A stretch of 64,000 bases of DNA from Eledone cirrhosa. Its lineage: Eukaryota. This document shows positions 2,067-61,550 of the stretch, in pieces. A program made the position numbers and the translations under genes. The stretch is from contig CAXHJY010001565.1 of the NCBI GenBank assembly GCA_964016885.1, forward strand, positions 19,101-83,100. Reading direction: 5' to 3'. Every line of letters starts with the position of its first letter. Position 1 is the stretch's first letter. A model generated the notes under the pieces. It had not been told where the DNA came from. It saw nothing but the letters and a program-made list of their open reading frames with translations, and did no database searches.

Positions 2067-3050
2067 AATCTGTCTACTAGTAAAGATACTATAAACATTT
2101 GAACTAATAAACCACAGGAAACCATATTCGTAAGACATCTTTGAAAAGTACAAAACAACACTATGACTACATCACATTAAATACAGAAGTCTTTAATACA
2201 ATAAATTATACAACAATCTGTCCACCACTAAAGATACTATAAACATTTAGTACAAAACGACACTATGACTACATCACATTAAAGTCTTTACTGTAATACT
2301 GTAAATTTTCACAACAATCTGTCCACCAGTAAAGATACTATAAACATTTAGTACAAAACCACACTATGACTATATCACATTAAATATTAAAGTCTTTACT
2401 GTAATACTGTAAATTTTCACAACAGTCTGTCCACCAGTAAAGATACTATAAACATTTAGTACAAAACCACACTATGACTATATCACATTAAATATTAAAG
2501 TCTTTACTGTAATACTGTAAATTTTCACAACAGTCTGTCCACCAGTAAAGATACTATAAACATTTAGTACAAAACAACACTATGACTACATCACATTAAA
2601 TATTAAAGTCTTTACTGTAATACTGTAAATTTTCACAACAGTCTGTCCACCAGTAAAGATACTATAAACATTTAGTACAAAACAACACTATGACTACATC
2701 ACATTAAATATTAAAGTCTTTACTGTAATACTGTAAATTTTCACAACAGTCTGTCCACCAGTAAAGATACTATAAACATTTAGTACAAAACAACACTATG
2801 ACTACATCACATTAAATATTAAAGTCTTTACTTAAACATGCTAAATGTTCACAACAATCTGTCCACAAAGATACTATAAACATTTGAATTAGCAAACCAC
2901 TTGAAACCACATTAGCAAGTCAATCTTGAAAAGCACAAAACAACACTATGACGACATCACACTACACATAGATGTCTTTACTCTAATACTACACATTTTT
3001 CAAACAATCTGTCCACCAGTAAAGATACTATAAACATTTGAATTAACAAA
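2067..3050. repeat. 108-bp intronic minisatellite with longer diverged flanking units
   Basis: gtccaccagtaaagatac recurs at 2321, 2429, 2537, 2645, 2753. Confidence 0.9.
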
Positions 3051-3544: not shown

Positions 3545-3612
3545 TATGTATGTGGGTATGTATGTACATATGTATATATATATATGTATGTATATGTATG
3601 TATATATGTGTG

Positions 3613-3644
<32 letters not shown>

Positions 3645-4380
3645 TATAAGTATACATGTGTGTATATATATATATATACACACATATATATACTTAAATA
3701 TATATATATACTTATAAGTATATATATATACATATATATATATACATATATACATATACATATACACATATACATATATATATACATATATATATACATA
3801 TATATATACATATGTATATATATACATATATATATATATATACATACATATATATATACATATATATATATATATACATACATATATATATACATATATA
3901 TATACATACATATATATATACATACATATATACATACATACATATATATATACATACATATATATATATATATATACATACATATATATATACATATATA
4001 TATACATATATATATACATATGTATATATATACATATATATATATATATACATACATATATATATACATATATATATACATACATATATATATACATACA
4101 TATATACATACATACATATATACATACATATATATATATACATACATATATATATACATACATATATATATACATACATATATATATACATACATATATA
4201 TATACATACATATATATATACATATATACATACATACATATATACATACATACATATATACATACATACATATATATATACATATATATATACATATATA
4301 TATACATATATATATACATATATATATACATATATATATACATATATATATATACATATATACATATACATATATATATA
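3545..4380. repeat. (TA)n/(TACA)n compound microsatellite
   Basis: Direct reading; source of the Y/I/H/M ORFs. Confidence 0.95.
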
Positions 4381-7300
4381 TTGAAACAAAATGAAAACGA
4401 AATTTCATTTCTCACTCTTAGTATGGCACTTACTTAAATGTAAGTATGCATGTATACGTACATACATATATGTATACAGACGTACAGTAGCATGCACATA
4501 TATATATATATATACATATATACATACAATGCATACAGGTACACATACATATATGCACGTATCAGTTTAGCGGCGCTAACGTCGCTTTGTTCGTTTGTAA
4601 ACAAACTGAACAGCCTGAATTTATGCCATACGGTGTTAAGGCAACCACGTCACCTTTTTGTTCAACACTGACACAGGAACGATGTACTAGTTTCAAGCTT
4701 GTTACGTATCATCAGCCACCGTTTACCCATCTGCCAGATAGTTGAACGTTCGAAAGTATATACTTTCCTATGAAAATTAACGGCTGAGCAGCCTAATTTG
4801 CATATTGAGTGAGTTAAATCGGTCAGGCATACCGAAAACGATAAATTGAAACAAAATGAAAACGAAATTTCATTTCTCACTCTTAGTATGGCACTTACTT
4901 AAATGTAAGTATGCATGTATACGTACATACATATATGTATACAGACGTACAGTAGCATGCACATATATATATATATATACATATATACATACATATGCAT
5001 ACAGGTACACATACATATATGCACGTATCAGTTTAGCGGCGCTAACGTCGCTTTGTTCGTTTGTAAACAAACTGAACAGCCTGAATTTATGCCATACGGT
5101 GTTAAGGCAACCACGTCACCTTTTTGTTCAACACTGACACAGGAACGATGTACTAGTTTCAAGCTTGTTAGCTATCATCAGCACCGTTTACCCATCTGCC
5201 AGATAGTTGAACGTTCGAAAGTATATACTTTCCTTATGAAAATTAACGGCTGAGCAGCCTAATTTGCATATTGAGTGAGTTAAATCGGTCAGGCATACCG
5301 AAAACGATAAATTGAAACAAAATGAAAACGAAATTTCATTTCTCACTCTTAGTATGGCACTTACTTAAATGTAAGTATGCATGTATACGTACATACATAT
5401 ATGTATACAGACGTACAGTAGCATGCACATATATATATATATATACATATATACATACATATGCATACAGGTACACATACATATATGCACGTATCAGTTT
5501 AGCGGCGCTAACGTCGCTTTGTTCGTTTGTAAACAAACTGAACAGCCTGAATTTATGCCATACGGTGTTAAGGCAACCACGTCACCTTTTTGGTCAACAC
5601 TGACACAGGAACGATGTACTAGTTTCAAGCTTGTTAGCTATCATCAGCACCGTTTACCCATCTGCCAGATAGTTGAACGTTCGAAAGTAAATACTTTCCT
5701 TATGAAAATTAACGGCTGAGCAGCCTAATTTGCATATTGAGTGAGTTAAATCGGTCAGGCATACCGAAAACGATAAATTGAAACAAAATGAAAACGAAAT
5801 TTCATTTCTCACTCTTAGTATGGCACTTACTTAAATGTAAGTATGCATGTATACGTACATACATATATGTATACAGACGTACAGTAGCATGCACATATAT
5901 ATATATATATACATATATACATACATATGCATACAGGTACACATACATATATGCACGTATCAGTTTAGCGGCGCTAACGTCGCTTTGTTCGTTTGTAAAC
6001 AAACTGAACAGCCTGAATTTATGCCATACGGTGTTAAGGCAACCACGTCACCTTTTTGTTCAACACTGACACAGGAACGATGTACTAGTTTCAAGCTTGT
6101 TAGCTATCATCAGCACCGTTTACCCATCTGCCAGATAGTTGAACGTTCGAAAGTATATACTTTCCTTATGAAAATTAACGGCTGAGCAGCCTAATTTGCA
6201 TATTGAGTGAGTTAAATCGGTCAGGCATACCGAAAACGATAAATTGAAACAAAATGAAAACGAAATTTCATTTCTCACTCTTAGTATGGCACTTACTTAA
6301 ATGTAAGTATGCATGTATACGTACATACATATATGTATACAGACGTACAGTAGCATGCACATATATATATATATATACATATATACATACATATGCATAC
6401 AGGTACACATACATATATGCACGTATCAGTTTAGCGGCGCTAACGTCGCTTTGTTCGTTTGTAAACAAACTGAACAGCCTGAATTTATGCCATACGGTGT
6501 TAAGGCAACCACGTCACCTTTTTGTTCAACACTGACACAGGAACGATGTACTAGTTTCAAGCTTGTTAGCTATCATCAGCACCGTTTACCCATCTGCCAG
6601 ATAGTTGAACGTTCGAAAGTATATACTTTCCTTATGAAAATTAACGGCTGAGCAGCCTAATTTGCATATTGAGTGAGTTAAATCGGTCAGGCATACCGAA
6701 AACGATAAATTGAAACAAAATGAAAACGAAATTTCATTTCTCACTCTTAGTATGGCACTTACTTAAATGTAAGTATGCATGTATACGTACATACATATAT
6801 GTATACAGACGTACAGTAGCATGCACATATATATATATATATACATATATACATACATATGCATACAGGTACACATACATATATGCACGTATCAGTTTAG
6901 CGGCGCTAACGTCGCTTTGTTCGTTTGTAAACAAACTGAACAGCCTGAATTTATGCCATACGGTGTTAAGGCAACCACGTCACCTTTTTGTTCAACACTG
7001 ACACAGGAACGATGTACTAGTTTCAAGCTTGTTAGCTATCATCAGCACCGTTTACCCATCTGCCAGATAGTTGAACGTTCGAAAGTATATACTTTCCTTA
7101 TGAAAATTAACGGCTGAGCAGCCTAATTTGCATATTGAGTGAGTTAAATCGGTCAGGCATACCGAAAACGATAAATTGAAACAAAATGAAAACGAAATTT
7201 CATTTCTCACTCTTAGTATGGCACTTACTTAAATGTAAGTATGCATGTATACGTACATACATATATGTATACAGACGTACAGTAGCATGCACATATATAT

Positions 7301-7686
7301 ATATATATACATATATACATACATATGCATACAGGTACACATACATATATGCACGTATCAGTTTAGCGGCGCTAACGTCGCTTTGTTCGTTTGTAAACAA
7401 ACTGAACAGCCTGAATTTATGCCATACGGTGTTAAGGCAACCACGTCACCTTTTTGTTCAACACTGACACAGGAACGATGTACTAGTTTCAAGCTTGTTA
7501 GCTATCATCAGCACCGTTTACCCATCTGCCAGATAGTTGAACGTTCGAAAGTATATACTTTCCTTATGAAAATTAACGGCTGAGCAGCCTAATTTGCATA
7601 TTGAGTGAGTTAAATCGGTCAGGCATACCGAAAACGATAAATTGAAACAAAATGAAAACGAAATTTCATTTCTCACTCTTAGTATG
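4381..7686 (-). mobile_element. Left arm of 466-bp tandem hammerhead-ribozyme array (~7.1 units; retrozyme-like / non-autonomous Penelope-like)
   Basis: Unit starts ttgaaacaaaatgaaaacg at 4381, 4846, 5312, 5778, 6244, 6710, 7176, 7642. HHR motifs on - at 4678-4723 (damaged), 5144-5188, 5610-5654, 6076-6120, 6542-6586, 7008-7052, 7474-7518. Confidence 0.85.
5144..5188 (-). ncRNA. Minimal type I hammerhead ribozyme (representative of the left arm)
   Basis: Reverse complement: AACGGTG-CTGATGA-TAGCT-AACA-AGCTT-GAAAC-TA-GTA^CATCGTT; 7-bp stem I, AGCT/AGCT stem II, short palindromic stem III. Confidence 0.85.
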
Positions 7687-10123
7687 CATATGTATGTATA
7701 TATGTATATATATATATATATGTGCATGCTACTGTACGTCTGTATACATATATGTATGTACGTATACATGCATACTTACATTTAAGTAAGTGCCATACTA
7801 AGAGTGAGAAATGAAATTTCGTTTTCATTTTGTTTCAATTTATCGTTTTCGGTATGCCTGACCGATTTAACTCACTCAATATGCAAATTAGGCTGCTCAG
7901 CCGTTAATTTTCATAAGGAAAGTATATACTTTCGAACGTTCAACTATCTGGCAGATGGGTAAACGGTGCTGATGATAGCTAACAAGCTTGAAACTAGTAC
8001 ATCGTTCCTGTGTCAGTGTTGAACAAAAAGGTGACGTGGTTGCCTTAACACCGTATGGCATAAATTCAGGCTGTTCAGTTTGTTTACAAACGAACAAAGC
8101 GACGTTAGCGCCGCTAAACTGATACGTGCATATATGTATGTGTACCTGTATGCATATGTATGTATATATGTATATATATATATATATGTGCATGCTACTG
8201 TACGTCTGTATACATATATGTATGTACGTATACATGCATACTTACATTTAAGTAAGTGCCATACTAAGAGTGAGAAATGAAATTTCGTTTTCATTTTGTT
8301 TCAATTTATCGTTTTCGGTATGCCTGACCGATTTAACTCACTCAATATGCAAATTAGGCTGCTCAGCCGTTAATTTTCATAAGGAAAGTATATACTTTCG
8401 AACGTTCAACTATCTGGCAGATGGGTAAACGGTGCTGATGATAGCTAACAAGCTTGAAACTAGTACATCGTTCCTGTGTCAGTGTTGAACAAAAAGGTGA
8501 CGTGGTTGCCTTAACACCGTATGGCATAAATTCAGGCTGTTCAGTTTGTTTACAAACGAACAAAGCGACGTTAGCGCCGCTAAACTGATACGTGCATATA
8601 TGTATGTGTACCTGTATGCATATGTATGTATATATGTATATATATATATATATGTGCATGCTACTGTACGTCTGTATACATATATGTATGTACGTATACA
8701 TGCATACTTACATTTAAGTAAGTGCCATACTAAGAGTGAGAAATGAAATTTCGTTTTCATTTTGTTTCAATTTATCGTTTTCGGTATGCCTGACCGATTT
8801 AACTCACTCAATATGCAAATTAGGCTGCTCAGCCGTTAATTTTCATAAGGAAAGTATATACTTTCGAACGTTCAACTATCTGGCAGATGGGTAAACGGTG
8901 CTGATGATAGCTAACAAGCTTGAAACTAGTACATCGTTCCTGTGTCAGTGTTGAACAAAAAGGTGACGTGGTTGCCTTAACACCGTATGGCATAAATTCA
9001 GGCTGTTCAGTTTGTTTACAAACGAACAAAGCGACGTTAGCGCCGCTAAACTGATACGTGCATATATGTATGTGTACCTGTATGCATATGTATGTATATA
9101 TGTATATATATATATATATGTGCATGCTACTGTACGTCTGTATACATATATGTATGTACGTATACATGCATACTTACATTTAAGTAAGTGCCATACTAAG
9201 AGTGAGAAATGAAATTTCGTTTTCATTTTGTTTCAATTTATCGTTTTCGGTATGCCTGACCGATTTAACTCACTCAATATGCAAATTAGGCTGCTCAGCC
9301 GTTAATTTTCATAAGGAAAGTATATACTTTCGAACGTTCAACTATCTGGCAGATGGGTAAACGGTGCTGATGATAGCTAACAAGCTTGAAACTAGTACAT
9401 CGTTCCTGTGTCAGTGTTGAACAAAAAGGTGACGTGGTTGCCTTAACACCGTATGGCATAAATTCAGGCTGTTCAGTTTGTTTACAAACGAACAAAGCGA
9501 CGTTAGCGCCGCTAAACTGATACGTGCATATATGTATGTGTACCTGTATGCATATGTATGTATATATGTATATATATATATATATGTGCATGCTACTGTA
9601 CGTCTGTATACATATATGTATGTACGTATACATGCATACTTACATTTAAGTAAGTGCCATACTAAGAGTGAGAAATGAAATTTCGTTTTCATTTTGTTTC
9701 AATTTATCGTTTTCGGTATGCCTGACCGATTTAACTCACTCAATATGCAAATTAGGCTGCTCAGCCGTTAATTTTCATAAGGAAAGTATATACTTTCGAA
9801 CGTTCAACTATCTGGCAGATGGGTAAACGGTGCTGATGATAGCTAACAAGCTTGAAACTAGTACATCGTTCCTGTGTCAGTGTTGAACAAAAAAAAAAAA
9901 AAAAAGGTGACGTGGTTGCCTTAACACCGTATGGCATAAATTCAGGCTGTTCAGTTTGTTTACAAACGAACAAAGCGACGTTAGCGCCGCTAAACTGATA
10001 CGTGCATATATGTATGTGTACCTGTATGCATATGTATGTATATATGTATATATATATATATATGTGCATGCTACTGTACGTCTGTATACATATATGTATG
10101 TACGTATACATGCATACTTACAT
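7682..10123 (+). mobile_element. Right (inverted) arm of the 466-bp HHR array (~5.2 units)
   Basis: Reverse complement of the left-arm unit; HHR motifs on + at 7962-8006, 8428-8472, 8894-8938, 9360-9404, 9826-9870; junction microhomology GTATG at 7682-7686. Confidence 0.85.
7962..8006 (+). ncRNA. Minimal type I hammerhead ribozyme (representative of the right arm), predicted cleavage after 7999 (GUA)
   Basis: AACGGTG(7962-68) CTGATGA(7969-75) TAGCT AACA AGCTT GAAA(7990-93) C TA GTA(7997-99) CATCGTT(8000-06). Confidence 0.85.
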
Positions 10124-10287
10124 ATATATATACATATACATATATATATACATATACATATATATATACATATACATATATATATACATATATATATACA
10201 TATATATATACATATATATATACATATATATATATATATACATATATATATACATATATATATATATATACATATATATACATATAC

Positions 10288-10318
<31 letters not shown>

Positions 10319-10347
10319 CATATATATACATATATATATATATATAC

Positions 10348-10389
<42 letters not shown>

Positions 10390-10445
10390 GTATATATATA
10401 TACATGTATATATATGTACATGTATATATATACATGTATATATAT

Positions 10446-10492
<47 letters not shown>

Positions 10493-10528
10493 CATGTATA
10501 TATATATACATGTATATATATATACATG

Positions 10529-10563
<35 letters not shown>

Positions 10564-10673
10564 GTATATATATATACATGTATATATATATACATGTATA
10601 TATATATACATGTATATATATATACATGTATATATATATACATGTATATATATATACATGTATATATATATAC

Positions 10674-10704
<31 letters not shown>

Positions 10705-10866
10705 CATATATATATATACATATATATATATACATATATATATATACATATATACATATATATATACATATATATATATATACATATATATACATATATA
10801 TATATACATATATATATATACATATATATATACATATGTATATATATATATATATGTATATATATC

Positions 10867-10908
<42 letters not shown>

Positions 10909-10913
10909 TATAC

Positions 10914-10972
<59 letters not shown>

Positions 10973-11306
10973 TATACATATATATATATACATATATATA
11001 TATACATATATATATACATATGTATATATATACATATGTATATATATATATATATATGTATATATATCTATATATATATGCATATATATCTATATATATA
11101 TATATATATGCATATATGTATATATATATATATATGCATATATGTATATATATGCATATATGTATGTATATATATATGCATATATGTATGTATATATATA
11201 TGCATATATGTATGTATATATGCATATATGTATGTATATATATATGCATATATGTATGTATATATATATGCATATATGTATGTATATATATATGCATATA
11301 TGTATG

Positions 11307-11341
<35 letters not shown>

Positions 11342-12091
11342 GCATATATGTATATATATGCATATATGTATATATATATATACATATATGTATATATGTA
11401 TATATATATATGCATATATGTATATATATATATATATGCATATATGTATATATATATATGCATATATGTATATATGTATATGCATATATGTATATATATA
11501 TATGCATATATGTATATATATATATATGCATATATGTATATATATATATGCATATATGTATATATATATATGCATATATGTATATATATATATGCATATA
11601 TGTATATATATATATGCATATATGTATATATATATATGCATATATGTATATATATATATGCATATATGTATATATATATATGCATATATGTATATATATA
11701 TATGCATATATGTATATATATATATGCATATATGTATATATATATATGCATATATGTATATATATATATATGCATATATGTATATATATATATATGCATA
11801 TATGTATATATATATATGCATATATGTATATATATATATGCATATATGTATATATCTATATATATATATGCATATATGTATATATATATATATATATATG
11901 CATATATGTATATATATATATATATATATGCATATATGTATATATATATATATATATATATGCATATATGTATATATATATATATATATGCATATATGTA
12001 TATATATATTATGCATATATATATATATGCATATATGTATATATATATGCATATATATATGTATATATATATGCATATATATATATATATA
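10124..12091. repeat. (TA)n microsatellite with TACA, CATG and TGCA interruptions
   Basis: Direct reading. Confidence 0.95.
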
Positions 12092-12142
12092 TAAAATAAA
12101 GTTAAATAAAAGTCAAATGATTAAAATTTAGCTTCGTTTATT

Positions 12143-12197
12143 ACTGCTATATATATTTCAGTGACAGCCATCTTTGGCTGTGACCTCTTCAGGCAGT
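12143..12197 (-). ncRNA. Type I hammerhead ribozyme
   Basis: Reverse complement of the motif at 12411-12465. Confidence 0.75.
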
Positions 12198-12410
12198 TTG
12201 AATTAGTGTGGTATAGACAGGTACATATGTTGTTTAGGTGTATGATATTGTCAATACTCTGATATGCCCAGTTCCTTGCTGGGTTGTTAATTCACTGGGG
12301 AACTGGAGTCATATCAGAGCACAACCCAGCAAGGAACTGGGCATATCAGAGTATTGACAATATCATACACCTAAACAACATATGTACTTGTCTATACCAT
12401 ACTAATTCAA

Positions 12411-41534: not shown

Positions 41535-42282
41535 AGCTAAATGAAACAAAGTCAGTCACATCTATCAATACATCCCATGTCTTGAGACACACGAGGCAGC
41601 TAAAGTGCTCCACTGACCAAGGTCAGTCACATCTATCAATACACCCCATGTCTTGAGACACAAGAGGCAGCTAAAATGCTCCACTGACCAAGGTCAGTCA
41701 CATCTATCAATACATCCCATGTCTTGAGACACACGAGGCAGCTAAAGTGCTCCACTGACCAAGGTTAGCTACAACTATCAATACACCCCATGTCTTGAGA
41801 CACAAGAGGTAGCTAAAGTGCTCCACTGACCAAGGTTAGTTACGACTATCAATACATCCGATGTATTGAGACACAAGAGGTAGCTAAAGTGCTCCACTGA
41901 CCAAGGTTAGTTACGACTATCAATACATCCCATGTCTTGAGACACAAGAGGTAGCTAAAGTGCTCCACTGACCAAGGTTAGTTACGACTATCAATACATC
42001 CCATGTCTTGAGACACACGAGGCAGCTAAAGTGCTCCACTGACCAAGGTTAGTTACGACTATCAATACATCCGATGTATTGAGACACAAGAGGTAGCTAA
42101 AGTGCTCCACTGACCAAGGTTAGTTACGACTATCAATACATCCCATGTCTTGAGACACAAGAGGTAGCTAAAGTGCTCCACTGACCAAGGTTAGTTACGA
42201 CTATCAATACATCCCATGTCTTGAGACACACGAGGCAGCTAAAATGCTCCAATGACGACGGTTAGTTCTATCTATCAATACA
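41535..42282. repeat. 71-bp minisatellite, ~10.5 copies
   Basis: tctatcaatac at 41561, 41632, 41703 and onward. Confidence 0.95.
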
Positions 42283-42289
42283 TCGTTCC

Positions 42290-44249: not shown

Positions 44250-44820
44250 TTTCTGAATTTGTTTAGCAAGATTCTTTATCTGAAAACGTGTGTTGAAACC
44301 GATATTGTTATACTTTGGGAGGGTCATGTTGCCAATAAGAAACACACGCACCAGTTGCTTTCACTCCAATTTATTATAAATTAAATTTATAAATTTAAGA
44401 ATTTATAAATTTCCGGTTGGTTGGTTGGTTCCACAACCGGACGGTTGTTCAAATATTGTCAAAGTTCTTTCGTCACACATTCTGTGACCTCTTCAGTGAC
44501 TGGATTCTTTTCTCTGTTTTGTGCCTCTCCTTTGTTCTGTCCTACGCCATCTTGTAATAACACAAAAACAAGATGGCGTAGGTCAGGACAAAGGAGAGGC
44601 ACAAAACAAAGAAAAGAATCCCCAGTCACTGAAAAGGTCACAGAATGTGTGACGAAAGAACTTTGACAATATATGAACAACTGTCCGGTTGTGGAACCAA
44701 CCAACCAACCGGAAATTTATAAATTCTTAAATTTATAAATTTAATTTATAATAAATTGGAGTGAAAGCAACTGGTGCGTGTGTTTCTTAATGGCAACATG
44801 ACCCTCCAAAGTATAACAAT

Positions 44821-47771: not shown

Positions 47772-50534
47772 CACAAGGTCCAGGGTTCTAACCCTACATT
47801 TGTCCCTGTAAATAGTTATTTCTCTAAAGTTACACAAGGTCCAGGGTTCTAACCCTACATCTGTCCCTGTAAATAGTTATTTCACCAAAGTTACACAAGG
47901 TCCAAGCTTCTAACCCTACATTAGTCCCTGTAAATAGTTATTTCACCAAAGTTACACAAGGTCCAGGCTTCTAACCCTACATTTGTCCCTGTAAATAGTT
48001 ATTTCTCTAAAGTTACACAAGGTCCAGGGTTCTAACTCTACATTTGTCCCTGTAAATAGTTATTTCTCCAAAGTTACACAAGGTCCTGGGTTGTAACCCT
48101 ACATTAGTCCCTGTAAATAGTTATTTCTCCAAAGTTACACAAGGTCCAGGGTTCTAACTCTACATTTGTCCCTGTAAATAGTTATTTCTCCAAAGTTACA
48201 CAAGGTCCTGGGTTGTAACCCTACCTTAGTCCCTGTAAATAGTTATTTCTCTAAAGTTACACAAGGTCCAGGGTTCTAACTCTACATTTGTCCCTGTAAA
48301 TAGTTATTTCACCAAAGTTACCCAAGGTCCTGGGTTCTAACCCTACATCTGTCCCTGTAAATAGTTATTTCTCTAAAGTTACACAAGGTCCAGGGTTCTA
48401 ACCCTACATTTGTCCCTGTAAATAGTTATTTCACCAAAGTTACACTAGGTCCTGGGTTCTAACCCTACATCTGTCCCTGTAAATAGTTATTTCACCAAAG
48501 TTACCCAAGGTCCTGGGTTCTAACCCTACATCTGTCCCTGTAAATAGTTATTTCTCTAAAGTTACACAAGGTCCAGGCTTCTAACCCTACATTAGTCCCT
48601 GTAAATAGTTATTTCACCAAAGTTACACAAGGTCCAGGCTTCTAACCCTACATCTGTCCCTGTAAATAGTTATTTCTCTAAAGTTACACAAGGTCCAGGG
48701 TTCTAACCCTACATCTGTCCCTGTAAATAGTTATTTCACCAAAGTTACACTAGGTCCAGGCTTCTAACCCTACATTAGTCCCTGTAAATAGTTATTTCAC
48801 CAAAGTTACACAAGGTCCAGGCTTCTAACCCTACATCTGTCCCTGTAAATAGTTATTTCTCTAAAGTTACACAAGGTCCAGGCTTCTAACCCTACATCTG
48901 TCCCTGTAAATAGTTATTTCTCTAAAGTTACACAAGGTCCAGGGTTCTAACCCTACATCTGTCCCTGTAAATAGTTATTTCACCAAAGTTACACTAGGTC
49001 CAGGCTTCTAACCCTACATTAGTCCCTGTAAATAGTTATTTCACCAAAGTTACACAAGGTCCAGGCTTCTAACCCTACATCTGTCCCTGTAAATAGTTAT
49101 TTCTCTAAAGTTACACAAGGTCCAGGCTTCTAACCCTACATCTGTCCCTGTAAATAGTTATTTCTCTAAAGTTACACAAGGTCCAGGGTTCTAACCCTAC
49201 ATCTGTCCCTGTAAATAGTTATTTCACCAAAGTTACACTAGGTCCAGGCTTCTAACCCTACATTAGTCCCTGTAAATAGTTATTTCACCAAAGTTACACA
49301 AGGTCCAGGCTTCTAACCCTACATCTGTCCCTGTAAATAGTTATTTCTCTAAAGTTACACAAGGTCCAGGGTTCTAACCCTACATCTGTCCCTGTAAATA
49401 GTTATTTCACCAAAGTTACACAAGGTCCAGGCTTCTAACCCTACATTAGTCCCTGTAAATAGTTATTTCTCTAAAGTTACACAAGGTCCTGGGTTGTAAC
49501 CCTACATTTGTCCCTGTAAATAGTTATTTCACCAAAGTTACTCAAGGTCCTGGGTTCTAACCCTACATTAGTCCCTGTAAATAGTTATTTCTCCAAAGTT
49601 ACACAAGGTCCAGGGTTCTAACCCTACATTTGTCCCTGTAAATAGTTATTTCTCTAAAGTTACACAAGGTCCAGGGTTCTAACTCTACATTTGTCCCTGT
49701 AAATAGTTATTTCTCCAAAGTTACACAAGGTCCTGGGTTGTAACCCTACATTTGTCCCCGTAAATAGTTATTTCACCAAAGTTACACAAGGTCCAGGCTT
49801 CTAACCCTACATTAGTCCCTGTAAATAGTTATTTCACCAAAGTTACACAAGGTCCTGGGTTGTAACCCTACATTAGTCCCTGTAAATAGTTATTTCACCA
49901 AAGTTACACAAGGTCCTGGGTTGTAACCCTACATTTGTCCCCGTAAATAGTTATTTCACCAAAGTTACACAAGGTCCAGGCTTCTAACCCTACATTAGTC
50001 CCTGTAAATAGTTATTTCACCAAAGTTACACAAGGTCCTGGGTTGTAACCCTACATTAGTCCCTGTAAATAGTTATTTCACCAAAGTTACACAAGGTCCT
50101 GGGTTGTAACCCTACATTTGTCCCCGTAAATAGTTATTTCACCAAAGTTACACAAGGTCCAGGGTTCTAACCCTACATTAGTCCCTGTAAATAGTTATTT
50201 CACCAAAGTTACACAAGGTCCTGGGTTGTAACCCTACATTAGTCCCTGTAAATAGTTATTTCACCAAAGTTACACAAGGTCCTGGGTTGTAACCCTACAT
50301 TAGTCCCTGTAAATAGTTATTTCTCCAAAGTTACACAAGGTCCAGGGTTCTAACCCTAGATTTGTCCCCGTAAATAGTTATTTCACCAAAGTTACACAAG
50401 GTCCAGGGTTCTAACTCTACATTTGTCCCTGTAAATAGTTATTTCACCAAAGTTACTCAAGGTCCAGGGTTCTAACCCTACATCTGTCCCTGTAAATAGT
50501 TATTTCACCAAAGTTACTCAAGGTCCAGGGTTCT
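47772..50534. repeat. 61-bp minisatellite, ~45 copies
   Basis: Unit cacaaggtccagggttctaaccctacatttgtccctgtaaatagttatttctctaaagtta; period 61 (47772, 47833). Confidence 0.95.
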
Positions 50535-56160: not shown

Positions 56161-59100
56161 ATCATCATCAACGTTTAACGTCCATGTTCCACGCTTGCAT
56201 GGGTTTGGACGGGGGTATTCCCACTTGAGGCAAGAGTGATTGTCTTGCTCGCATAGGACTGTCTGGCAGGTTTTCTACAGCTGGATGCCCTTCCTAACAC
56301 CAACCACATTTACAGTGTGGGTCTGGGAGGTTTTTACCGTGTTGCCTACACGGCCACATTACAGCGTGGACTGTGTGTTTTTTTGTCGTGACACCTACAC
56401 GATCTTATTTGTTTCGGCCTGGATGGTGTGGCACCAACATAACTTTACATAGAAGGGGGTGGTGTGGATGGGGTGGGGGTGGTGGGACGGGGGTGTATTT
56501 TGTTAGAGATGCCTACTGGCTGTAGTAGGTTTTACTATGTATTTAGGTAAGGCGAGTCTTCTTTATTACTGAGTACCGCCAAAGGTCTCGGTCCAGTGAC
56601 ATTGTCTTGGAGAGGTGTAAGTGTGTGAGGTCGGAGTTTATCAGCTCGTCCCAGGTTTTTCTAGGTCTGCCTATTCCGTGGCTACCGTCTATCTTTATTG
56701 CCCTGCACTTTGTTATACAGCTATCGACTTTCATGCGCATCACGTGTCCATACCAACGTAGCCTTCTCTCGAGTAAACAACATCTGATCCCTCTTATTTC
56801 TAATTTTTTCCTTAGTTCGTTTATGCTTTGCCATTCACGTATATTACTATTACACATCCAGCGGAGCATGCAAGCTTCGTTCCTCTCTAGTCTGCATATA
56901 TCCTCTGCACACAATGCCCAGGTCTCACTGCCATGCAACATTGCTGTTCGTATGCAGGCATCATACAACCTGCCTTTCATTTTTAGGGAGAACCCTTTAG
57001 CGGCTAATAGTGGTATAAGCTCTCTGAACTTTTTCCATCCAGTTCTGACTCTAGCTACTGTACTTTCAGAGCACCCTCCCCCACTGCTGATTTTGTCACC
57101 CAGGTAACGGAAGCTGTCCACTATTTCTATAGAGCCCTCTGCGCAGTTGTAAGAGCTAGTATTTTGTGGGCACTTGCTGCTACTTATTGCACCAGACCAC
57201 CGGCCACATGTAAAATCTATGTTCTTAGTTAGCTTACCTGTGATCCCACTATATCTTTTATGCACCCATACTTTGCATTTGGGACATAAAATAGAGTTTC
57301 TACCTATGCCTTTCCTACACACTGAGCATGGCCATTTCCTGGAAGGGACCGCCGCCTTATTTTCTTTCCTACAAACTAGAACTTTAGTCTTAGCCAGGTT
57401 AATTTTAAGGCCTTTTGATTCTAGGCCGTGCTTCCATGTTTGGAATTTCTTCTCTAGCTCGGCCATTGATTCAGCTATGAGTGTCAGGTCGTCTGCGTAT
57501 AGGAGTTCCCATGGGCAGCCGGTCTTGAACTCCTCTGTTATAGCCTGAAGGGCAATAATAAATAGTAGGGGGCTGAGAACAGAGCCCTGATGGACGCCAA
57601 CTTTTATGCTAAACTCTTCACTATATTTGTTGTTAATTCTAACCTTGCTGACTGTTTCTTTATACATGGCTTGTATAGCTCTCACAAGCCATTCGTCGAC
57701 ACCTAGTTTTCTAAGGGCCCACCAGATAATGGAACGGGGGACTCTGTCGAAGGCTTTCTCCAAGTCGACAAAAGCTAAGTAGAGGGGTTTACCTTTAGCT
57801 AGGTACTTCTCCTGTAGTTGTCGTACAATGAAAAGAGCGTCTGTGGTACTTTTGCCTGACACAAACCCGAATTGCATTTCATCTAGGTCAATTCTCTCTC
57901 TGATTAGTTGCGCTATTACTTTTTCCGTGACCTTCATGACCTGGTCGATTAATTTAATGCCTCTATAGTTACTCCTATCTAAGGCATCTCCTTTACCCTT
58001 ATAACAGTTAACGATGATGCTGCTATGCCAGTCCTTCGGAACAACCCCATTCTGTACGACTTGGTTAACTATCCGGGTGACCATGGTGAGTCCCACCGTG
58101 CCAGATGCCTTCAGCATCTCAGCAACTATTTCCGAAGGCCCAGCCGCCTTACTCGTCTTCATATCCTTGATTGCCTTACTTATTATACTACCCTCGACTA
58201 ACACTGCTGGTCCCTCTATTGGGTCGATGTGGGGGAGACTGTCTTTCTCCCATTTATTCTCCTCATTTAGTAGCCTTTCATAGTGACACTTCCAAGCTAC
58301 CTTCTTATCAGCGTCGGTGATGGCAAGTACGCCGTCATCATTAAGTACACACTTCTCCCCGATAATATCACGGTTTTCCTTGACACATTGCCTAGCAATC
58401 CTGAACACCTCACGTTTTTGCTCCTCGCGTTGTAGAACATGCTTGAACTTTCTTTCCTCTGCTTCCCATCTTGCGAAGTACACTTGTCTCCTAGCTTCCC
58501 TCCTGGCCACTTGATAGTCTTCTCTACTTCCCCCATCCCGCCATACTTTCCAAGCCTGCTTTTTGGCCTTAATTGACCCCTCCACCTTACTGTTCCACCA
58601 CCATGTTACTCTCCTCCTGCCTACAGGCCTGCTCCAGCCACAGACTTCGTCTGTCGCCATCAGCAGGTTTGCTTTCAGAAATTCCCACTGTCCCTCTATA
58701 TTGTCCGACTCTAAATGCTCTTCCTTACTGTCGAAAGCATCAAGTAATATGCTTTGAAATTTATTTCTGGCTGTGGGGTCCTTTAGCTTCCATATTTTTC
58801 TCCTGAGGATAGTCCTCTTCTGCTGTCGAGTACGTCTCGTCCTGACTATGAGGTCGCTAATTATCAGTCTATGTTGAGAGGTGCATTCTTCATGGGGGAG
58901 GGATTTAGTGTTTACAACAGACACTCTGTCACGTCTTCTGGTAAGGATATAATCTACCTGGCTTGTGTGTTCTCCGGATCTATAGGTGATCAGGTGATTG
59001 TCACGTTTTTTGAAGTTAGTGTTACAGATAGTTAGGTTATTTGCCTCACAGAATTCCAGGATTCTGGAGCCTTCCTCATTTCTAGTACCAAACCCATAGC

Positions 59101-59288
59101 CTCCATGGATTTCGTCGTAGCCGTCACAATGTTGTCCAACGTGACCATTTAGGTCGCCTGCAATAATTATATAGTCACTGTCGGTTATTTGTGAGGTAGT
59201 GAGCATCAGTGTCTCATAGAATCTGTCTTTTATAGCGCCGGGCAGTCCGGATTGGGGTGCGTACGCAGATATTACTGTCACCGTAGTT

Positions 59289-59292
<4 letters not shown>
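56161..59292 (-). mobile_element. RTE-clade LINE, 5'-truncated within the endonuclease
   Basis: (GAT)n tail at 56161, 3' UTR, uninterrupted ORF, 5' end abuts (TA)n. Confidence 0.95.
56543..59290 (-). CDS. RTE ORF: partial APE endonuclease + reverse transcriptase + Cys-rich PHD-like finger (~915 aa)
   Basis: ISAYAPQ, GDLNGHVG, QVDYIL, SQHRL (APE); NYRGIKL, QFGF, AFVDLEKAFDRV, GVHQGSVLSPLLF, LLYADD (RT). The first ~44 aa of the listed ORF are microsatellite. Confidence 0.92.
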
Positions 59293-59360
<68 letters not shown>

Positions 59361-59391
59361 TGTAACATCAGACAACCACTATCAGCCAGTC

Positions 59392-59422
<31 letters not shown>

Positions 59423-59933
59423 GTAACATCAGACACCACCATCAACCAGTCTACCAAGTTGGACCAGCACTTCTTTCATTGATCCCTGAAAGAAAGATAA
59501 ACAAAGATGACCTTGGCAAGATTTGAACTCAGACTGTAGGGACTTGGAACAAATACCACAAGGCATCTAAACTGACGTTTTAACAGTGATTCTCAAATGG
59601 GGGACACATGGTTGTCAGAGAAAGGGCTTTACCGGAAGGAGGAATGAAAACTGGGAAATAATAGAATATCTATTGTATATATATCAAATGAAAAACCAGT
59701 ACACCCAACTAGTGTGTGTGTGTGTGCGTGTGTGTACGAGCGAGACACGGTCACCCGACCAATCTTGCCTCAAGCGGGACAAACCTGTCCAACCCAAGCT
59801 ATGTGGTAGAAAAATATAAAGGGCAAATCATAACAAATAAAACAAAACAAAGTAATGTCTCTACCCAGTATATTTCAGGGCTAATACCCTCTTTTCAAAA
59901 ACCGATGGGCTAAAATTGCTCAGAGGACAGAGA

Positions 59934-60076: not shown

Positions 60077-60244
60077 CATCTGCGTGGAAATAATCTAACA
60101 CAGCAGGAGTTAATATACATATATTTTTTTAAATATTATATGTAGCTGTGTGTAAAGTTTTTTTGTAATAAATTATCGTATTTTGAGCTGATATAACTTT
60201 TTCCCCTACACCTTTCCAGTTTCTATGTTTGAAAACATAGGATA

Positions 60245-61072
60245 AATTTGGGTTTAAAATCTTATAATAACCCTCCGAGTAACCCAGCTTTGCTACCCTT
60301 CGAAAACGATGTCTTGGCACTCATACGGAGTATCACATTTCAGAACAGGAGCAATTCCTTCCAGCAGGACCTGAAGAATAGAATTCGTTCTATTAAGGAT
60401 TCTAATGCCGTGCATGTCCACTCCGACAAAACTGGCAATCTATATCAAGTGGAGCGCAGTACTTACCATCAACTGCTACATAATGCTGTAACTAAGGTTT
60501 ACCGGAAAACTAATTGGCGTGTCATTAATGACATCAACGATGCTGGGTTTAAAATCACTTCTGAACTCAACATCCAGAACCGGACTGAACCTCTGGACCT
60601 ATTTCTCCCCACTTTACCCTGAAGGATCACAAACCCAATTTCACTAACAACTCTTCTATTTGGCTAATTAACCCTACAAGGTCTGATTTAGGTAGACTTA
60701 GTAAAAGGATTTTAGATATAATTATACCTGAAATTAGAAGCTTGGCCCCTCTTGCACTGTGGAACAATTCTTTCGCGGTGATTGATTGGTTCAATGGCAT
60801 ATGCAACAAAGAACATTGCTGTTTTATCCAATTCGATATCAATGACTACTACTCCTCCATCACTTTACCACTTCTTAGAGCTATCAATTTCGCTAAAATG
60901 CCCACGGTGGTTAACGATTTCGAAGTTGATGTCATCCTCAATGCCCGTAAGTCGGTGATTAATTTTGATGACTCTATTTCGATAACAAAATCTAATAGTA
61001 CCCCATTTGACGTGAGTATGGGCGCCAACGATTTGGCGGAGGTTACTGATCTTATTGGCCTTTTTCTTCTTT
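60245..61072 (+). pseudogene. Penelope-like element reverse transcriptase remnant (frameshifted, 3'-truncated)
   Basis: FGFKS...FENDV...SDKTGNLY...TLKDHKPNF...LINPTRSDLGRLSK.ILD...W.N...VIDWF...FIQFDINDYYSSI...FDVSMGANDLAEVTDLIGLFLL. Confidence 0.8.
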
Positions 61073-61079
61073 TATATAT

Positions 61080-61343
61080 ATCATCATCATCATTTTACGT
61101 CGGCTTTTCCCTGCTTGCAAGGGTGGGGCGGGTCCTCTTCAGCACAGCATCTCTCCATTCTTCACGATCCTTTGTCATCGCCTCGGTGAGTTTCAGCGAT
61201 CTGAGGTCTGCTCTCACCACCTCCGCCCATGTTTTACGGGGTCTAGCTCTACTGTGTCTTCCTTCTACTGGGATTTCTTGGCACTTCTTTACCCAGCGGC
61301 CATCCTCCATGCGCATCACATGCCCATACCATCTCTCCTGCAC
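61080..61343 (-). mobile_element. RTE LINE 3' end with (GAT)n tail
   Basis: RWYGHVMRM...VEG...RPRKTW.EVV..DL......DREEWR; tail matches the SINE tails. Confidence 0.85.
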
Positions 61344-61371: not shown

Positions 61372-61408
<37 letters not shown>

Positions 61409-61491
61409 GGAAGTGAGTTTTATTGTAGTACAATAAAGCAATGCAGATATCGGATAAGAAGCACTCTACAGTTTGTAGGACTGGAGTATAC

Positions 61492-61540
61492 ATAATATAT
61501 AAGATCAAAAGATGGAACTCTTTTAACCATCTTTTGATCT

Positions 61541-61550
<10 letters not shown>
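61492..61550. repeat. Perfect 24-bp fold-back next to (TA)n
   Basis: ataatatataagatcaaaagatgg / ccatcttttgatcttatatattat. Confidence 0.8.

Follow-up and report, generated by a model that had tools for sequence, protein, structure and literature searches.

A hammerhead retrozyme array in Eledone cirrhosa and its Penelope-type insertion ends

Introduction

Non-LTR retrozymes (LTR, long terminal repeat) are an established class of elements, and RNA circles have been shown for them in coral, mussel and axolotl (PMC7229834; here and below, statements from the literature refer to the portions of each paper that were searched). An element of this known class is described here from the octopus Eledone cirrhosa. 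It is located at positions 4380–10123 of a 64,000 nucleotide (nt) stretch (assembly GCA_964016885.1, contig CAXHJY010001565.1, positions 19,101–83,100 of the forward strand), which is termed the window. The element is an array of 466 bp units that display a hammerhead ribozyme motif, and it represents a real, young and abundant octopus retrozyme family that is dispersed and non-coding. It is probably a non-autonomous element that is mobilized by proteins that Penelope-like elements (PLEs) encode.

A PLE origin of retrozymes has been argued from co-occurrence and from similarity to pseudo-LTRs (pLTRs) in 35 genomes, none of them from a mollusc (bioRxiv 10.64898/2026.07.22.740005). PLEs with an endonuclease (EN+) are recognized by a tail at one end, an inverted 5′-truncated copy and (TA)n targets (PMC8557442, PMC3846280); (TA)n targets are typical of the Hydra, Neptune and Naiad groups (PMC8557442). 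The PLE termed PAc nicks both strands of AT-rich DNA in vitro, its reverse transcription begins at two internal positions on either side of the tail, and its hammerhead needs protein but is not required for insertion (PMC11167929). Minimal hammerheads (min-HHR) have a highly conserved G10.1-C11.1 pair and low activity in vitro, and pairs of these motifs on opposite strands, 100–700 bp apart, are already on record (PMC4209133). The giant squid genome paper, in its searched text, gives just a count of 235 Rfam hammerheads.

The octopus element resembles metazoan non-LTR retrozymes in its non-coding, low-GC tandem units with one type I hammerhead each, its thousands of dispersed copies and its proposed dependence on PLEs. 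The GC content of the unit is 36%, and retrozymes are expected to be below about 45–50%. A first reading of the window, made from the sequence only, took the unit to be longer than known metazoan retrozyme monomers. It is longer than the ~220–400 nt species tested in PMC7229834, however 466 bp is within the reported range of retrozyme consensus lengths, 51–972 bp (bioRxiv 10.64898/2026.07.22.740005). Differences from published retrozymes are the octopus host (the searched text of these two papers contains no cephalopod), a minimal hammerhead with a U-U at the base of stem II, and the head-to-head arms, fixed ends and (TA)n targeting, which were not found in the same texts (“inverted” has no match in PMC7229834 and “tail” has none in the bioRxiv paper).

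With EN+ PLEs (Hydra, Neptune; PAc/Poseidon) the element shares the one-end tail, the inverted 5′-truncated copy, partial tandems and the (TA)n target, as well as a hammerhead upstream of two reverse transcription start sites, one of which (site A below) is in a stem-loop. Unlike these PLEs, it has no open reading frame (ORF), its arms contain up to 15 short units, and it shows no detectable homology to three autonomous families resident in the genome. It is also comparable to MRC1 of Chlamydomonas, a non-coding element with multicopy head-to-tail insertions that is moved by PLE proteins (PMC8557442). Elements of the MRC1 type generally share 3′ sequence with an autonomous family, whereas the octopus retrozyme has no identified parent; and most Chlamys elements lack canonical hammerheads, whereas the octopus retrozyme has one (PMC8557442).

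Structure of the Array

The array has a period of 466 bp and contains 12.3 units in total, as given by Tandem Repeats Finder (TRF) and by direct alignment. The units are almost identical, as first read: TRF matches among units are 99% and 7 of the 10 full monomers are identical to the reference monomer. The sequence-only reading described one tandem array of twelve units, the near-zero divergence of which would fit one recent rolling-circle event. The period and the unit number stand, however the insertion is composed of two arms of 7.1 and 5.2 units in opposite orientation, most likely primed at two different fixed sites, with their 5′ ends meeting (head-to-head) and the whole embedded in a (TA)n tract. 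Unit position 1 is window position 8466, the first base after the predicted hammerhead cut. The features are as follows.

4380..7686, minus strand: left arm, 7.1 units with 7 hammerheads, 5′ end at unit position 261
7682..10123, plus strand: right arm, 5.2 units with 5 hammerheads, 5′ end at unit position 149
7682..7686: head-to-head junction, a 5 nt microhomology (GTATG) common to both arms
4380..4437, minus strand: 58 nt PLE-type tail (unit 249–306), at the outer end of the left arm only
8466..8931, plus strand: reference monomer from cut site to cut site, 466 nt
3545..4379: (TA)n/(TATACA)n target tract, left flank
10124..12093: (TA)n-rich target tract, right flank

The 3′ end of the left arm is at the “tailed” site B (unit ~306) and that of the right arm is at the “tailless” site A (unit 248), and both are joined to (TA)n. 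The A-run in the last unit of the right arm is longer by 12 nt. Because both flanks are (TA)n, a target-site duplication is not readable. No terminal repeats other than the units themselves are seen at the insertion, where a primer binding site and a polypurine tract were not searched for.

The unit contains no credible ORF, as had been stated from the sequence. The longest ATG-initiated ORF on the hammerhead strand is 48 amino acids (aa), and the opposite strand has frames of 93 and 112 aa that are of low complexity. The ORF for a reverse transcriptase (RT) and GIY-YIG endonuclease that is found between the pLTRs of PLEs is absent from the unit and from the insertion.

Contigs of the four public sequencing runs that were compared all contain the tandem junction. 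No run with the unit is listed as RNA, which speaks neither for nor against expression. Runs X4 and X5 (organism labels B and C) gave one ring-closing contig each, with 0 and 1 differences from window positions 8329–8794 and without subfamily variants (the library type is not on record); runs X1 and X6 gave many variant contigs. The ring-closing contigs are not used as evidence of circles, since tandem DNA also gives a ring.

Family and Subfamilies in the Genome

The exact 45 nt hammerhead sequence is found 8,299 times in the genome (reversed control, 0), thus the unit is not confined to this locus. A relaxed 28 nt core gives 27,644 matches, which include older subfamilies of 420–430 bp, and a marker of the youngest subfamily is present in 4,449 copies; all these counts are by sequence patterns. 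The subfamilies form a series from the 466 bp form to the 420–430 bp forms, which are ~76% identical. One loose end had hinted at a subfamily that lacks the hammerhead; it has 1 match only and was rejected. The proposal of a candidate retrozyme is therefore upheld by a dispersed, non-coding, hammerhead-bearing tandem element of thousands of copies. The stretches that were examined surround the matches listed first, most of them on contig C1, and this sample is positional and not genome-wide.

Insertion Ends and Pairing of the Arms

Arms stop at site A (unit 248–251) or at site B (unit 305–310), which are 58 nt apart, and continue directly into (TA)n. Among 97 arms in 60 stretches, 85 could be classed as A or B by anchors (a few of the A classifications are interrupted tails), 4 are doubtful B arms and 8 are of other types. 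Of the adjacent arms in opposite orientation, 32 pairs are head-to-head and 2 are tail-to-tail. The 32 head-to-head pairs, in which the duplicated locus L089 is counted twice, consist of 26 A+B, 1 A+A, 0 B+B and 5 with an unclassifiable partner. Thus 26 of the 27 classifiable pairs are A+B, and in the lone A+A pair one arm has an interrupted tail.

A similar pattern is found on C1. Outward-facing neighbouring ends within 12 kb are A/B in 25 of 27 cases and inward-facing neighbours number just 2; this pairing used the first listed ends (96 A, 100 B), and its loci overlap partly with those of the 60 stretches. Genome-wide, there are 2,470 A and 2,795 B end patterns, which cover the subfamilies unequally. 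The pairing of ends supports the earlier suggestion that Penelope-type machinery acts in trans.

The phases at which two arms join are scattered, with an overlap of 0–5 nt in 22 of 33 junctions (the junction in the window was read by eye). Four of the 33 are symmetric and located at palindromes of the unit (L025, L030, L051 and L087). Arms extend across the hammerhead cut site and reach lengths of up to 15 units. An accumulation of 5′ ends at the cut was looked for and rejected: 0 of 202 arm starts stop there, and all 5 starts reported at unit position 1 extend past the cut on inspection. The smallest insertions (L184, L186) consist of the hairpin described below and the tail only, without a hammerhead.

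Two further observations concern arm ends. Six of the 202 arm starts are at unit position 59 (L034, L044, L048, L094, L157 and L185). This base is part of the 5′ strand in the long-range helix described below and is possibly a stall site of the RT. At L040 (2090–2345) and L031 (1900–2240), retrozyme arms are head-to-head with the 3′ ends of other small elements with no TA between them, and these are possible cross-family chimeras.

The Hammerhead Motif

The motif in the unit is AACGGTG-CTGATGA-T-AGCT(AACA)AGCT-T-GAAAC-TA-GTA^CATCGTT. A type I core in each unit had been reported from the sequence, and the exact 45 nt motif is present in 11 of the 12 hammerheads, one per unit. The predicted plus strand cuts are after 7999, 8465, 8931, 9397 and 9863, where the placement of the motif agrees with the first reading. 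The hammerheads are as follows.

8428..8472, plus strand: minimal type I hammerhead (example), predicted cut after 8465
7962, 8894, 9360 and 9826, plus strand: other exact hammerheads
5144, 5610, 6076, 6542, 7008 and 7474, minus strand: other exact hammerheads
~4678..4723, minus strand: twelfth and leftmost hammerhead, with stems I and II altered by mutation or sequencing error

In the leftmost hammerhead, stem I contains an additional G and a dinucleotide of stem II is swapped; these changes may be sequencing errors.

The core (CUGAUGA or CUGACGA, GAAA and the triplet GUA) fits CUGANGA/GAAA/NUH. There is an additional nucleotide after position 9, as in minimal hammerheads that act as dimers, and stem III is a palindrome, CUAG, with a predicted self-duplex of −6.8 kcal/mol. 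These are properties of the min-HHR of metazoan PLEs, including the palindromic 15.2–16.2 region (PMC4209133). In contrast to the min-HHR described there, the G10.1-C11.1 pair is absent, stem II has 4 bp and stem I is extended by further helices. The U-U noted at the base of stem II is real; the two residues flank an A-U pair, and the same arrangement is found in the hammerhead of a resident Hydra-clade PLE of 758 aa.

In 16 subfamily sequences, 95.8% of stem I cells and 98.4% of stem II cells are paired, and one stem I pair varies as G-U, U-G and A-U. Core and stems are kept across the ~76% identical subfamilies, with changes located mostly at N7, in loop II and in compensated stem pairs. Rfam gave no match at the gathering score; among its hammerhead models, Hammerhead_HH9 alone matched, with 18.5 bits (E-value = 0.13; gathering score 52). 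Rfam matches to miRNA families over the TA hairpin were rejected as low-complexity artefacts. The hammerhead is rather likely to be active solely as a dimer or with help from a protein.

Secondary Structure of the Unit RNA

The predicted circle has a minimum free energy of −152 kcal/mol on the hammerhead strand and −113.5 kcal/mol on the antisense strand. Without the TA hairpin, the sense strand has a z score of −4.8 against 60 shuffles, and the antisense strand is near the shuffled mean. Two elements of the structure are located near site A.

8588..8697, plus strand: long TA/TG-rich hairpin (unit 123–232) directly upstream of site A, which differs in length among copies
8520..8729, plus strand: long-range 7 bp helix (unit 55–61 with 258–264), which closes the domain that holds site A

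The two strands of the helix are ~200 nt apart. Of 101 locus haplotypes, 56 have T-A and 42 have C-G at pair 57/262, and 76 have A-T and 17 have T-A at pair 61/258; these two compensatory double changes probably each go back to a single event. Pairing over the 54 named pairs is 97.5% in 16 subfamily representatives, and changes that recur in several sequences keep pairing on the hammerhead strand, mostly via G-U. The compensatory changes and the strand-specific folding support selection on RNA structure. The pairing statistics are taken as support and not as proof, because the structure was derived from the same, related sequences.

Penelope-like Elements of the Genome

The genome contains long open frames of at least three autonomous PLE families: a Hydra-clade family (758 aa), a Neptune-like family (995 aa) and a second Hydra-clade family, Hydra-B (up to 809 aa). 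The frames of 758, 809 and 995 aa carry a C-terminal GIY-YIG, and as judged from their intact coding sequence these are candidate active elements. Neptune-like and Hydra-B copies display the same two-end pattern in (TA)n as the retrozyme. The PLE ORFs were not classified by Pfam; the closest named relative of one of the proteins is an Octopus vulgaris protein with 67% identity. The Neptune-like family is presumably related to Neptune on the basis of its motifs. The Hydra label is from a comparison with PMC8557442 of the motifs RWR, DKT, CxCX5C, CxxC and CxH.

The retrozyme unit could have been just the pLTR of a catalogued Penelope family. No such relation was found with the three PLE families compared, a comparison that lay outside Repbase and Dfam. 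The 758 aa Hydra family, the 995 aa Neptune-like family and Hydra-B were each rejected as the parent, as each has its own hammerhead and tail. When the retrozyme tail was aligned with the PLE tails, 60–428 of 500 shuffles scored equally high. L102 had the appearance of a parent, with an 86 nt piece of the unit 1.1 kb behind a Neptune-like EN domain, however this piece is not a common 3′ untranslated region in the other 29 copies examined. A presumed chimera at L116 is actually a retrozyme nested in a Hydra-type copy.

At one locus, L027, a single TA tract contains a tailed Hydra-B arm and a piece of the Hydra-B ORF that are joined to an A arm of the retrozyme. The Hydra-B arm and ORF piece are ~98% identical to young copies and there is no TA at the join, which resembles what a template switch would give. 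Hydra-B, a young Hydra-clade PLE, is tentatively named as the likeliest helper, at somewhat less than an even chance.

The 758 aa family has a degenerate TA/TG microsatellite of more than 1.5 kb inside its 3′ region, seen downstream of the ORF at L060, L062 and L070, and also at L082 and L085. Since this family carries long microsatellite DNA, PLEs may spread such DNA in the genome. Many distinct families with minimal hammerheads are present in the genome.

Template of the Insertions

Because arms pass the cut site repeatedly and none ends at it, a cleaved linear monomer is not the template. The template must have been continuous across this site and is thus a circle or an uncleaved multimer. 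Divergence is 0.23% within loci and 1.66% between loci (15 loci), in favour of one homogeneous template per event. Rare variants are fixed in all units of both arms at L023 (7/7), L173 (6/6), L093 (5/5) and L172 (4/4), and in every unit of L166 (9/9), again in favour of a homogeneous template; those of L166 and L023 imply monomer bottlenecks. A circle formed by dimeric hammerhead cleavage and ligation is favoured as the template, at an even chance or slightly better. It is favoured weakly because in PAc, the sole PLE tested in vitro, the hammerhead is dispensable and uncleaved RNA is the main template (PMC11167929).

Variants common to both arms are mosaic in 14 cases and fixed in 11. Period-2 or period-3 patterns are found at L112, L157, L163 and L042/43, and the two arms of L042/43 carry an identical succession of unit variants with an offset of one unit. 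These patterns would fit heterogeneous multimer templates or later turnover. The period-2 alternation along arms, seen at L112, L157, L163 and L023, may be from a dimer-circle template or from a later two-unit duplication.

Proposed Mechanism and Alternatives

The fixed ends and the A/B pairing match the “tail plus inverted copy” footprint of PLEs, therefore a PLE RT/endonuclease most likely primes at both ends of the target, most likely on circular or uncleaved multimeric RNA. In the proposed sequence of events, a PLE RT/GIY-YIG protein, probably a dimer, would bind the structured domain of the unit RNA and cut both strands of a (TA)n tract. Each freed target 3′ end would prime one arm, one at A and the other at B, and each RT would copy upstream until it dissociates. 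The two cDNAs would then be joined at their 5′ ends via microhomology, and later unequal exchange and TA slippage would reshape older arrays.

Several points weigh against this interpretation. Cleavage, expression and circles of the unit are predictions. The G10.1-C11.1 pair that is missing from stem II is highly conserved in minimal hammerheads (PMC4209133), 8 of 9 Xenopus retrozyme dimers showed no cleavage (bioRxiv 10.64898/2026.07.22.740005), and the inner stem I pairs have probabilities of just 0.18–0.28 in the predicted circle. The compensatory changes are few events that were inherited by subfamilies, and the mosaic and periodic variants described above count against the interpretation as well. 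The unit has no homology to the 3′ end or tail of the three autonomous PLE families compared. Its tail, at 58 nt, differs from that of Hydra-B (~90 nt) and is longer than the 30–40 nt described for EN+ PLEs. L040 joins a B arm to a long-ended arm of another family and breaks the strict A/B rule. L027 is only one locus and may instead reflect a deletion between nested insertions.

The alternative that fares best has the same PLE twin priming, however an existing array is transcribed into a long uncleaved linear multimer that is the template, the hammerhead is a passenger that is slow or passive, and any circles are by-products. It is a serious possibility, though somewhat short of an even chance. 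PAc hammerhead mutants show no effect on insertion and no PAc reads end at the cut (PMC11167929), minimal hammerheads cleave poorly (PMC4209133; bioRxiv 10.64898/2026.07.22.740005), and the hammerhead-free insertions L184 and L186 as well as the shifted run at L042/43 are in agreement with a multimer. The conservation of core and stems across divergent subfamilies and the rare variants fixed in every unit (L166, and L023 across both arms) are not. In addition, the stem II variant of L042/43 has only 20 copies genome-wide, and a source array with the same unit order was not found among 16 other stretches.

A more far-reaching version of the circle template is doubtful. Here the unit would be a self-perpetuating circular-RNA retro-replicon that has no sequence debt to a living PLE and recruits a Hydra-clade RT/endonuclease purely by RNA structure, with two simultaneous rolling-circle reverse transcriptions, each from one of the cut target ends, and with two obligatory arms in every insertion, one tailed and one tailless. 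If true, the ring-closing contigs of X4 and X5 would be the expressed circle of the youngest subfamily, and the family, with its thousands of short and young insertions, would be the clearest natural record of PLE integration and of circle-templated retrotransposition in an animal.

Assembly of the head-to-head structure by self-priming on an antisense transcript, as modelled for rotifer Penelope elements (PMC3846280), is improbable. The 4 symmetric junctions at unit palindromes agree with such a process, however at the remaining 29 the phases of the two arms differ, the outer end on either side is a 3′ end of the sense strand that continues into target (TA)n (one at A, the other at B), and the folding and the G-U type of variation favour the hammerhead strand.

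Mobilization by a LINE (RTE/L2-type), in the manner of a SINE and with L1-style twin priming, is very improbable. LINE ORFs are present (window 56543–59428), and L1 twin priming yields head-to-head inversions. The second L1 primer site is variable, however, whereas both priming sites of the retrozyme are internal and fixed; its 3′ end has no poly(A) or tandem repeat, and resident autonomous PLE families have the same two-end pattern.

Finally, a DNA-level minisatellite (slippage or unequal exchange) or a fold-back-read assembly artefact with a fortuitous hammerhead-like motif is largely refuted: the small contig that holds the window, the error-like changes of the leftmost unit, the local turnover in older arrays and the Rfam score below gathering would agree with it, but thousands of dispersed insertions share the same two ends, the junction is asymmetric and follows the family rule, the tandem junction recurs in all four public runs compared, and the long-range helix has compensatory changes.

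Other Features of the Window

Other elements found in the same window are as follows.

12094..12613: non-coding inverted pair in (TA)n with a minimal hammerhead in each arm and a ~98 nt extension on one arm only; judged from sequence, a candidate for another small family of PLE type that is built with the same two ends
13208..14281: head-to-head insertion with a Hydra-clade GIY-YIG fragment (13760–14224), a hammerhead at 13340 (minus strand) and a ~79 nt tail on one end
61405..61545: minimal head-to-head Hydra-B insertion of ~140 bp, with only the tailed and tailless 3′ ends
60233..61080: broken Hydra-type RT fragment
22278 (minus), 32233 (plus), 44496 (minus) and 52693 (minus): hammerhead-like motifs of other families, that at 44496 belonging to a Neptune-like PLE
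56543..59428, minus strand: LINE ORF of 961 aa with endonuclease and RT
2147..2885 (108 bp), 26584..28171 (49 bp), 41562..42284 (71 bp) and 47772..50534 (61 bp): ordinary minisatellites

Significance

In the open literature that was searched, neither this family nor any retrozyme with a tail/inversion footprint was found to be described. The earlier link between PLEs and retrozymes is from co-occurrence and pLTR similarity (PMC7229834; bioRxiv 10.64898/2026.07.22.740005), and the octopus family adds the mechanistic footprint itself, namely two fixed start sites of reverse transcription, each belonging to one of the arms, at a (TA)n target. This is direct structural evidence of twin-primed integration of the PLE type. 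The pairing of one tailed with one tailless end makes the “optional tail” of PLEs a countable rule, which fits a dimeric enzyme that primes both target strands. A 466 nt RNA with mapped start sites, together with candidate intact helper ORFs, offers a compact system for the questions of the purpose of the PLE hammerhead and of circular templates. As for the organism, the retrozyme family fills megabases of the octopus genome and carries its own TA microsatellite.

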